NCBI GenBank assembly: GCA_965202655.1 | Contig: CBDBBK010000001.1 | Location: 1,461,627-1,525,626, forward strand | Reading direction: 5' to 3' | DNA from: Vicinamibacterales bacterium | GTDB lineage: Bacteria; Acidobacteriota; Vicinamibacteria; Vicinamibacterales; UBA8438 | Length of the DNA stretch: 64,000 nt | Part shown: positions 27,253-28,929 of the stretch, piece by piece | How the letters are laid out: each line of letters begins with the position of its first letter | How positions within the stretch are numbered: the stretch's first letter is position 1 | The notes under the pieces: model-generated | Told to the model about the DNA's origin: nothing | Seen by the model: only the letters and a program-made list of their open reading frames with translations | Databases searched by the model: none | Program-made: the position numbers and the translations under genes

Positions 27253-27293
27253 TTGACATTGGTCATGTGACATGACCTAGTATGTGACCTGTG
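27253..27293 (+). promoter_or_regulatory. promoter with embedded operator palindrome for the Phd-type antitoxin; probably a leaderless transcript
   Basis: - TTGACA at 27253-27258.
- Perfect palindrome GGTCATGT-G-ACATGACC at 27261-27277.
- TAGTAT at 27278-27283 (19-nt spacer, longer than optimal).
- GTG start at 27291, only 7 nt after the -10-like box, with no Shine-Dalgarno.
- An extra half-site-like ATGTGACC at 27282-27289. Confidence 0.5.
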
Positions 27294-27782
27294 CGGCAGA
27301 TCAATCTCGCGGACGCCAAGGCGCACCTGTCTCAGTACATCGACAGCGTCGAACGCGGAGAGACGATCGTGCTCTGCCGCCGGAACGTTCCGGTCGCGGA
27401 GATCCGCCCTCTGCCGCAGCCGCTGAACGAACCGCGGCCGGTCGGCCTCTACCCTGGTCTGGTCGTTCCCGACAGCTTCTTCGAACCGCTTCCTGAAGAC
27501 GTGCTCCAGGCGTTCGAGGGGGGAAGCGACGAAACGGCCACCCACGAACCCGCAAGACCGGAGGATAGCGAGGTTTACCGGGAGACGCTTCGCCGGTGCG
27601 AAACCAGGCTCAAGGTGTTTTTTGAACAGAAGCAGCGCCCGCCCGGCTTACGCATCGTTTCCCTGACTCCAGACAACGTGATCCCGTGTCTCCAGTCCCC
27701 GCACCGTATCGAACGTGAGGCTGCCTGGAAGACGATTGAACGGCTTCCGATGACGCCAGGGGGATGGAGCCTCGCCGGCTGA
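27291..27782 (+). CDS. Phd/YefM-type antitoxin domain with an ~85-aa C-terminal extension of unknown function
   Basis: [41 protein letters not shown]...[18 protein letters not shown] matches the full length of canonical ~80-aa antitoxins of this type. The frame then stays open for another 85 codons with coding-like GC3. Confidence 0.7.
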
Positions 27783-28543
27783 TTGCAGTGAACCAGAAGC
27801 TTCTTGATTGCAGGCTGAGTCGCGCCGGATGGGGTGACAGCTCGGTCGATCTGGACGTGTCCAGCATCGAACCTGCTGGCGATCTCGACGTGCTGCCAAA
27901 CCTGCTACGGATCACGTCGCCGTCGGAAGAACTCGCCGCCATGCTGTCGTGGACCGACCGATCCGGTTGCGCCCTCCAGTGTCAGTTCACGGTCGGGCCG
28001 GCCGCTCGGCCGGGTTGCGGCACGTTGAAGACGGCGGAGGCCGTCCGCGGGTACGTTACTGCGACGGCGGCCGAGATTGAACTTGTTGATGGATGGCGGG
28101 GGGAGCCGTTCTTCTGGGGCAACCGCGACGTGCAGGAGGAGGAGGTCGAGGCCGCGATCTACGGCCTGGCCGCCGACTGTGACCTCGAGATACTGAGCGA
28201 TCCCACCCAGCGAGACACCGACGGCGTACCGAGGGCCGTGATTCTGCGGTCCGAGCAGGACCAGGCAGTGCTCTTCATCGCGCACTCGCCTGCCGAGTCC
28301 TGGATCCTGTCCGGCGTCGTCCGGCGCCTGCAGGAAACAGGGCTCCTCGTGCAGGCCGACGCCGAACAGCCTCCCGCCGCGGGTTCCTGGCTGGCGCGCA
28401 CCCCGCATCGGCGTACGGACAAGGAAGCGCCACGCGTCACGCGATGGCTGGGTGGTCATGGCACCCGCGCCCAACTGGCCTCCGAGCAGCGCACCCGGTC
28501 CGAGTGGCCGGTGGTCCAGCGATGGCAGGGCGCCCGACGGTGA
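27764..28543 (+). CDS. hypothetical protein (259 aa) between antitoxin and toxin; no family recognised
   Basis: High GC3 in this frame, and a protein-like central region ([45 protein letters not shown]...[29 protein letters not shown]). It overlaps the upstream ORF by 19 nt. Its TGA overlaps the GTG of the PIN gene (GTGA at 28540-28543). The start codon and the Arg-rich C-terminal tail are uncertain. Confidence 0.5.
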
Positions 28544-28929
28544 AACTGCTGCTCGACACCTGCACGTTCCTGTGGCTGGCCACCGACGATCCGCGATTGC
28601 CGCTACGCGCACGCACAGAGTGCCGTTCGCCCCGCAACTTCGTTTACCTGAGCGCACTCTCCGCGCTGGAAATCGCCATCAAGCATCGGCTGGGGAAGTT
28701 GGAGCTTCCGGATCCTCCGGAACGGTTCATCAGCCGCGCGCGTGAACGGTTGCGGATCGAGCCGTTGCCGTTCGACGAGCAGGACGCGGCGCACGACGCG
28801 CTCCTGCCAGACCATCACGGCGACCCGTTCGACCGCTGCCTGGTCTCGCAGGCGATCCTGCGCGGAATGACGATCGTGACGCCCGACGCGGACATCGCCA
28901 GGTATCCAGCGCCCGTCCTCTGGCTGTAG
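28540..28929 (+). CDS. vapC: PIN-domain toxin, VapC family
   Basis: (V/M)[19 protein letters not shown]...YLSALSALEIAIKHRLGKLELP...LPDHHGDPFDRCLVSQAILRGMTIVTPD. GTG 28540 is preferred because of its family-typical N-terminus and the stop overlap; ATG 28522 is the alternative. Confidence 0.8.
   Translation: MKLLLDTCTFLWLATDDPRLPLRARTECRSPRNFVYLSALSALEIAIKHRLGKLELPDPPERFISRARERLRIEPLPFDEQDAAHDALLPDHHGDPFDRCLVSQAILRGMTIVTPDADIARYPAPVLWL

Follow-up and report, generated by a model that had tools for sequence, protein, structure and literature searches.

Toxin-antitoxin (TA) modules of the VapBC type are among the most numerous TA systems, and what triggers them is still largely unknown. Several described TA systems carry a third gene. 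In PasABC, an accessory third component enhances the antitoxin and may strengthen or tune neutralization without being an antitoxin itself, and in HipBST, omega-epsilon-zeta, and PaaR2-PaaA2-ParE2, a DNA-binding protein, a middle protein, and the toxin are encoded in that order in one operon. In toxin-antitoxin-chaperone (TAC) systems, represented by Mycobacterium tuberculosis HigBA-SecB, Escherichia coli HigBAC, and CmdTAC, the TA pair is joined by a third, co-inherited protein. Deletion of the chaperone-addiction (ChAD) extension of a TAC antitoxin renders the antitoxin chaperone-independent (PMC5105189), and HigBAC senses the lambda tail-tube protein gpV (bioRxiv 10.1101/2024.02.24.581848). 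Here we describe a locus in a Vicinamibacterales genome (assembly GCA_965202655.1, contig CBDBBK010000001.1), found within a 64-kb stretch of DNA referred to below as the window, in which a Phd/YefM antitoxin gene and a PIN toxin gene are separated by a third gene that we call mid. It is very probably a true, conserved tripartite operon in which the third gene is functionally tied to a C-terminal extension of the antitoxin.

The three coupled genes occupy window positions 27291–28929 on the forward strand and share a single promoter. Their parts are as follows:

27291..27524, forward strand: antitoxin core, amino acids 1–78, with a Phd/YefM DNA-binding fold at amino acids 1–38 and a conserved C-terminal motif

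27525..27782, forward strand: antitoxin extension, amino acids 79–163 and the stop codon, with a disordered linker followed by three predicted helices

27788..28543, forward strand: mid, 251 aa, two predicted alpha/beta domains, start taken from homologs

28412..28540, forward strand: C-terminal tail of mid, last 43 aa, basic, predicted to be disordered, highly conserved, ending in RW

28540..28929, forward strand: PIN-domain (VapC-like) toxin, 129 aa, Pfam PF01850 with E 1.7e-11

Read from its sequence, the locus is a real three-gene offshoot of the Phd/PIN (VapBC-like) type II TA operons. It combines an antitoxin with the Phd/YefM fold, a PIN protein with acidic active-site residues, and a palindromic promoter operator for which binding is predicted. 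The antitoxin gene lies directly upstream of the toxin gene in two-gene relatives but not in the window or in any intact three-gene copy.

A scan of one genome per species identified 28 mid loci, all in metagenome-assembled genomes (MAGs) classified as Vicinamibacterales, Vicinamibacteria, or Acidobacteriota, and the lineage with the three-gene form comprises soil and marine acidobacteria. All 28 loci have a Phd core approximately 480 nt upstream of mid and a PIN gene immediately downstream, and among the genome loci found, mid was seen only in this slot between a long Phd gene and PIN. Some genomes contain two copies (e.g., L014 and L023). Altogether, 105 mid homologs of approximately 250 aa were recovered with 51–81% identity, nearly all from metagenome assemblies and none of them named. 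The antitoxin extension and mid always co-occur. A sequence-only reading of the window had proposed a candidate three-component TA module and suggested looking for mid between Phd and PIN genes elsewhere; its recurrence there in 28/28 genome loci, together with purifying selection on both added parts, supports the proposal at the genomic level.

Selection was assessed with the ratio of nonsynonymous to synonymous substitution rates (dN/dS), given as Nei-Gojobori medians over 138 locus pairs. Median dN/dS was 0.09 for the antitoxin core, 0.13 for PIN, 0.34 for mid, and 0.46 for the extension, values that indicate purifying selection on all four segments, with the extension and mid evolving three to four times faster than the core and PIN. 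An absence of mid homologs or of codon-level conservation, either of which had been named beforehand as evidence against the module, was thus not what we found: there are 105 homologs, and the two added segments have ratios of 0.34 and 0.46.

Searching metagenomes with the antitoxin profile gave 80 loci, of which 79 have a short Phd gene (most products are 78–85 aa) and, behind it, PIN; the two genes usually overlap by 4 nt. The extension and mid are absent from all 79 two-gene metagenome loci, whose proteins are up to 70% (core) and up to 73% (PIN) identical to those of the window. In a neighbor-joining tree of core plus PIN (bootstrap not run), all 21 three-gene loci form one clade nested within the diversity of the two-gene loci. 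The two-gene form is ancestral, and from the nesting it follows that the extension and mid were gained in a single event by a TA pair that otherwise did not change. Relatives with an antitoxin ending at the AFEG motif, which the sequence-only reading had counted as potential evidence against its proposal, do exist (79/80 metagenome loci), but they represent the ancestral two-gene form and are not evidence that the intervening 1 kb is junk.

The middle protein was described in that reading as having no recognizable family, and every search agreed. No match to mid was found in Pfam, NCBIfam, PADLOC, or PHROGs, nor by sequence in the PDB, and a Pfam scan of 37 mid family members at E ≤ 10 gave just three unrelated single hits. 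A profile hidden Markov model (HMM) of mid searched against 1.84 billion representative proteins produced 14 hits, all of them family members or fragments. The AlphaFold2 (AF2) model of mid, built from 37 sequences, has a mean predicted local distance difference test score (pLDDT) of 69.5 and places the two alpha/beta domains at approximately residues 11–108 and 125–217 (numbered on the longer, 259-aa reading frame). Foldseek detected no significant fold for this model, with best E values of 0.026 (PDB) and 0.004 (BFVD) and nothing at E ≤ 0.001; no SecB was present among the 360 PDB fold matches. The top weak matches were repeatedly phage baseplate-hub and tail-tube-like domains, which we treat as a lead only. 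Two other candidate relationships were discarded. The apparent IMS_C (ImuB/Y-family polymerase) link came from P0103, in which mid is cut in its tail and joined to an unrelated C-terminus, a deletion artifact, and an internal duplication of mid received an hhalign probability of 0.04 for the N-terminal versus the C-terminal domain.

Intact mid proteins are 247–252 aa in length, with one of 269 aa. In this exception (L014, 4001–4810), the additional residues are encoded immediately ahead of the PIN start, which indicates that the C-terminal end of mid tolerates insertion. A loop with the pattern GWxGEPxYWGNR is invariant and modeled with low confidence. The tail has pLDDT < 50 and a dN/dS of 0.30, contains several invariant Arg and Trp positions, and has an isoelectric point (pI) of 11.9 versus 4.4 for the body of the protein. 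The last mid codons also contain a GGAG-like ribosome-binding site for the PIN gene.

In the antitoxin, Pfam family PhdYeFM_antitox (PF02604) covers amino acids 1–40 only (E 2.4e-8), and TIGR01552 also matches. The AF2 model of the antitoxin (71 sequences; pLDDT 74) has structural neighbors for the N-terminal domain only: by Foldseek, the Phd core fold matches VapB46 (6jqy; target TM-score 0.88) and P1 Phd, with root-mean-square deviations of 1.0–1.7 over approximately 40 residues. Beyond this domain, AF2 predicts two short helices over the toxin-binding motif and then a disordered linker. The core is 73–94% identical to that of relatives, and at three positions it has residues that are fixed in the three-gene clade alone. 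Its C-terminal motif is invariant and identical to the motif of two-gene antitoxins, which is why we regard the core as probably still an antitoxin. As the sequence-only reading had noted, the reading frame does not end behind the motif, which closes at amino acid 77, but continues into 85 extra codons. The helices predicted there span amino acids 94–115, 127–134, and 139–151 with pLDDT 74–88, and the extension has nearly invariant residues and keeps its length and helical pattern across copies. Antitoxin length is 157–167 aa in 23 of 24 intact copies, the exception being L019, which is frameshifted to 105 aa. The extension had no match in Pfam, NCBIfam, PADLOC, PHROGs, the PDB (by sequence or fold), or BFVD, and a search with an extension-only profile found nothing beyond this family or its split remnants. 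Matches of 71–86 aa that at first resembled a free-standing extension domain come from decayed loci lacking mid and PIN, where a frameshift has split the antitoxin and the match is its second half.

The PIN protein is 71–85% identical to its relatives. Its acidic residues D6, E44, D97 (in GDPFDR), and D116 (in TPD) are kept in all three-gene and two-gene relatives inspected, and six PIN positions are fixed in the three-gene clade alone.

Homologs were decisive for the start of mid. The antitoxin reading frame extends from GTG 27291 to TGA 27782 (163 aa), and the longest middle frame spans 27764–28543 (259 aa from ATG 27764), from which a 19-nt overlap with the antitoxin gene had been deduced. 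Mid homologs begin eight residues downstream of ATG 27764, and the ATG of the closest relative, L005, corresponds to GTG 27788 of the window. ATG 27764 was accordingly dropped as the start. Because the window and L005 share a 5-nt gap before a GTG or ATG at the homologous position, mid likely occupies 27788–28543 (251 aa), starting 5 nt past the antitoxin stop, and the 19-nt overlap does not hold. Of the 24 intact copies, 21 have Phd and mid genes that overlap by 4 nt, whereas the window and L005 have the 5-nt gap. At the other junction, the mid stop overlaps the GTG of the PIN gene (28540–28929) in the sequence GTGA at 28540–28543, as first read, and a 4-nt ATGA or GTGA overlap is found at this point in 24/24 intact copies. 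GGAG is located approximately 8 nt 5′ of the PIN start in most loci, and purine-rich tracts are found 5′ of the mid start in many.

GC content by codon position is coding-like in all three genes (0.72/0.53/0.79 for mid). The earlier argument that a random insert would bring stop codons is weak at 68% GC, where we estimate the chance of 85 stop-free codons at approximately 0.16. A 250-aa antisense reading frame also overlies mid (window 27905–28657, reverse strand), a typical high-GC shadow ORF (open reading frame), which means that ORF length alone is no evidence of a gene at this locus. Coding status rests on conservation and not on the open frame. No second copy of any module part was found in the 64-kb window, and no Rfam match was found in the region at E ≤ 1.

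Upstream of the antitoxin gene, the sequence-only reading had recognized one operator-bearing, apparently leaderless promoter in front of all three genes, an assignment supported by the recurrence of its layout in most related loci. Its elements are:

27253..27258, forward strand: -35 hexamer TTGACA, read directly, with TTGACA or a near match in most related loci

27261..27277, forward strand: putative Phd operator between -35 and -10, a perfect 8-1-8 palindrome, GGTCATGT-g-ACATGACC

27278..27283, forward strand: -10 hexamer TAGTAT, 19-nt spacer, 7 nt before the GTG

27285..27289, forward strand: extra TGACC half-site between -10 and the start codon, where GAC(C/T) recurs in relatives

The octamer pair GGTCATGT/ACATGACC occurs once in the 64-kb window, and GGTCATGT or a close variant is present at the same place in most related loci. 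Relatives have TATAAT, TAGAAT, or CAATAAT-like hexamers 7–8 nt before an ATG or GTG, and the order of -35, GGTCATGT, TAnAAT-like hexamer, 7–8 nt, and start codon recurs in most of 24 related loci. This recurring layout supports a leaderless, autoregulated transcript, and since the -10 hexamer of the window is only 7 nt from the start codon, the mRNA is probably leaderless. A consensus scan found no internal promoters or terminators, but it accepts spacers of only 16–18 nt and for that reason also missed the module's own promoter, with its spacer of 19 nt.

Decayed copies of the module show which parts are lost and in what order. In L028–L030, one deletion takes the end of mid and PIN residues 1–32; L031 and L032 have larger deletions in the toxin-proximal part; in P0094, mid is truncated by a deletion extending into PIN; and in L027, approximately 2.7 kb, probably an insertion, lies between the halves of mid, with only PIN residues 1–75 detected. 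Decay thus usually takes the toxin-proximal part first. Much the same deletion, joining mid at approximately residue 145–156 to PIN residue 33, appears to be present in three different MAGs (L028, L029, and L030; positions ~4400–4450), which suggests an inherited inactivated allele and not independent events. Two further variants have lost other parts. In L026, both the extension and mid carry deletions and frameshifts, and the core and PIN are intact, with the catalytic residues kept; in L019, a single frameshift interrupts the extension, and mid and PIN are intact. If real, these two copies are suggestive on three counts: mid may not be needed to keep PIN harmless, it may not itself be toxic, and the extension and mid may be discarded together. 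In L119–L121 (2266–2746), a frameshift-split Phd plus extension is kept, and mid and PIN are lost; L121 has DruA and IS66 transposase genes nearby.

Compared with described systems, the closest resemblance is to Phd/YefM-type VapBC modules (M. tuberculosis VapBC46 and the two-gene loci L037 and L039–L118), which share the antitoxin fold, the PIN family, and the C-terminal antitoxin motif. In those two-gene forms, the antitoxin is 78–85 aa and its stop overlaps the PIN start, whereas here an 85-aa extension and a 756-nt gene intervene. An analogy with TAC systems had been drawn in the sequence-only reading, and part of it stands: as in TAC, a TA pair is accompanied by a third co-inherited protein, the antitoxin has a C-terminal extension absent from two-gene relatives, and the extension and third gene seem dispensable for neutralization once both are lost (here L026); use as a trigger sensor is a further possible likeness. 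Other aspects differ. Neither the sequence nor the fold of the third protein resembles SecB. Its gene lies between antitoxin and toxin genes and not last, the extension is an approximately 85-aa, predicted folded three-helix domain in place of the short unstructured ChAD, and the extension-mid pair is not modular, being confined to one TA family in one lineage. Lacking a SecB-like third protein and having another gene order, the locus is not a TAC member, and the likeness is one of analogy only.

HipBST, omega-epsilon-zeta, and PaaR2-PaaA2-ParE2 share the order of DNA-binding protein, middle protein, and toxin in one operon. In the present locus, however, mid matches none of the antitoxin families of Pfam, NCBIfam, or PHROGs. 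The first protein still has a toxin-binding motif of its own, for which reason the module does not belong with regulator-antitoxin-toxin systems as HipBST exemplifies them. PasC, with which mid may share an accessory role, is a small protein encoded at the end of its operon and is presumably unrelated. None of the three proteins had a defense-system match in PADLOC-DB v2 at E ≤ 1, and a full-text literature search found no description of such a three-gene module, the one paper to name Vicinamibacter together with toxin-antitoxin being about the metabolism of sponge symbionts. To judge from the searches, the tripartite arrangement is new, as is an orphan protein family of approximately 100 clusters restricted to Vicinamibacteria and without detectable relatives; the underlying Phd/PIN pair is known and very common.

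The genomic setting of the module differs between copies. In the window, its neighbors are a tannase-family gene on one side and a convergent gene for an ankyrin-repeat protein on the other, and it is syntenic with L005 on the upstream side. Other copies are found near MmeI-type and type I restriction-modification genes, GmrSD, integrases, and transposases, which fits a mobile or defense-island association for part of the family, though not for the window copy. A perfect 28-nt loopless palindrome (window 27140–27167) with the halves AACTAGAGAAAGTC and GACTTTCTCTAGTT is found in the low-GC DNA that separates the tannase gene from the TA promoter, at the very end of the block common to L005. Possible roles for this palindrome are to bind a protein or to act as a hairpin terminator that lacks a T-run; alternatively, it may mark the boundary of an insertion. 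Downstream, approximately 5.3 kb (window 28930–34228) is absent from L005, in which a major facilitator superfamily (MFS) transporter gene (window 34298–35878) directly follows PIN. This segment encodes the ankyrin-repeat protein, a DUF1552 protein, and most of a DUF1592/1588/1587/1585/1595 protein, and a 280-nt stretch of it (33886–34166) resembles L005 positions 1–281 at 74%. In a separate set of loci (L033–L036, 2501–3039), the gene for P0196, a 91-aa homolog of the Phd core present in 23 contigs, overlaps by 4 nt the HicB-like antitoxin gene that comes after it, beside smpB. The HicB-like gene there takes the place of PIN, leaving two antitoxin-like genes in tandem with no adjacent toxin.

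For the mechanism, we infer every protein-protein contact and the direction of control. One autoregulated and probably leaderless promoter would drive transcription of the whole operon, and translation of its genes would be coupled. PIN would be the RNase toxin, and the Phd core would bind the operator and still neutralize PIN through its conserved C-terminal motif. What the lineage has added to them is a matched pair, a helical domain of approximately 70 residues at the end of the antitoxin and the 251-aa orphan protein. In the mechanism we favor, mid would dock on the extension, its conserved basic tail might contact PIN or nucleic acid, and docking would set the amount of active antitoxin available; were mid lost or titrated, for example by stress or a phage product, the toxin would be freed. 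By analogy this is TAC-like logic built from unrelated parts, and we hold it tentatively, at somewhat below even chances, although it is the best placed of the specific mechanisms, which together leave part of the probability unassigned.

Several points weigh against this mechanism. Mid has no recognizable fold or motif, so that a role as regulator or sensor is a default and not a finding. In TAC, the ChAD segments are short, unstructured, and prone to aggregation, whereas a folded helical domain is predicted for the extension. The order antitoxin-X-toxin and an Arg-rich tail encoded upstream of the toxin gene suit direct binding of mid to PIN equally well. The argument from variants draws on two MAG contigs, L026 and L019, which could be assembly errors, and the window copy is located among ordinary chromosomal genes, outside any defense island.

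A more specific possibility, somewhat less likely still, is that the extension and mid constitute a non-SecB addiction or sensor unit, grafted once onto a VapBC-type pair and making it triggerable, for example by a phage structural protein. Were this so, the faint but recurrent fold likeness of one mid domain to phage tail-tube and baseplate-hub domains would reflect mimicry of, or descent from, a phage protein, and the module would parallel the sensing of gpV by HigBAC as a convergent analog of TAC.

The alternative that survives best casts mid as a co-antitoxin or toxin modulator whose basic, disordered tail binds the acidic PIN active site, as the Arg-bearing C-termini of VapB proteins do, with the Phd-extension protein acting mainly as an operator-binding regulator and anchor, as in HipBST, omega-epsilon-zeta, and PaaR-PaaA-ParE. 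The mid gene is directly upstream of the toxin gene and overlaps it in every locus; the tail has several invariant Arg and Trp residues although it is predicted to be disordered, as expected of a segment that folds on binding; its pI of 11.9 contrasts with that of the body (4.4); and the six PIN positions fixed only in the three-gene clade could be read in the same way. We nevertheless consider this unlikely. The Phd core retains the full, invariant toxin-binding motif and has therefore not been reduced to a regulator, the co-inherited extension is left unexplained, and conservation at the very end of the tail may partly reflect the embedded ribosome-binding site. In L026, moreover, mid is disrupted beside an intact PIN with its catalytic residues, so that PIN is apparently tolerated without mid (n = 1).

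It is less probable again that mid acts as another toxin or as an effector, with the extension as its dedicated neutralizing domain, giving one bifunctional antitoxin for two toxins, a state that could have originated when a cassette of a small protein plus mid was inserted into a Phd-PIN operon and the small gene was fused to phd. The extension does precede mid as antitoxin regions precede toxins, the two have been gained and lost together, and the remnants L119–L121 retain Phd and the extension after loss of mid and PIN, which is how TA modules usually decay. No fold or motif of mid resembles that of a toxin, however; no free-standing cassette of small protein plus mid was found in 1.84 billion representatives or 5.8 billion clusters; and the frameshifted extension of L019 beside an intact mid should be lethal if mid were toxic (n = 1). 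That mid is a passenger unlinked to TA function, with the extension a read-through that keeps translation coupled, is very improbable, for although open frames are cheap at 68% GC and the extension is the least constrained segment (dN/dS 0.46), the two parts show strict, exclusive co-occurrence over divergence down to approximately 50% identity, both are under selection, the extension keeps its length, helical pattern, and nearly invariant residues, and mid was never found outside the Phd-PIN slot.

Whichever mechanism applies, evolution has added just two things to a nearly unchanged TA pair, an antitoxin tail and a single new protein, and two-gene relatives close enough to serve as controls are at hand, with identities of up to 70% for the core and up to 73% for PIN. 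Should the availability of the antitoxin be governed by these additions, control resembling chaperone addiction would have arisen independently of SecB, and the system would offer a compact experimental handle on TA activation.

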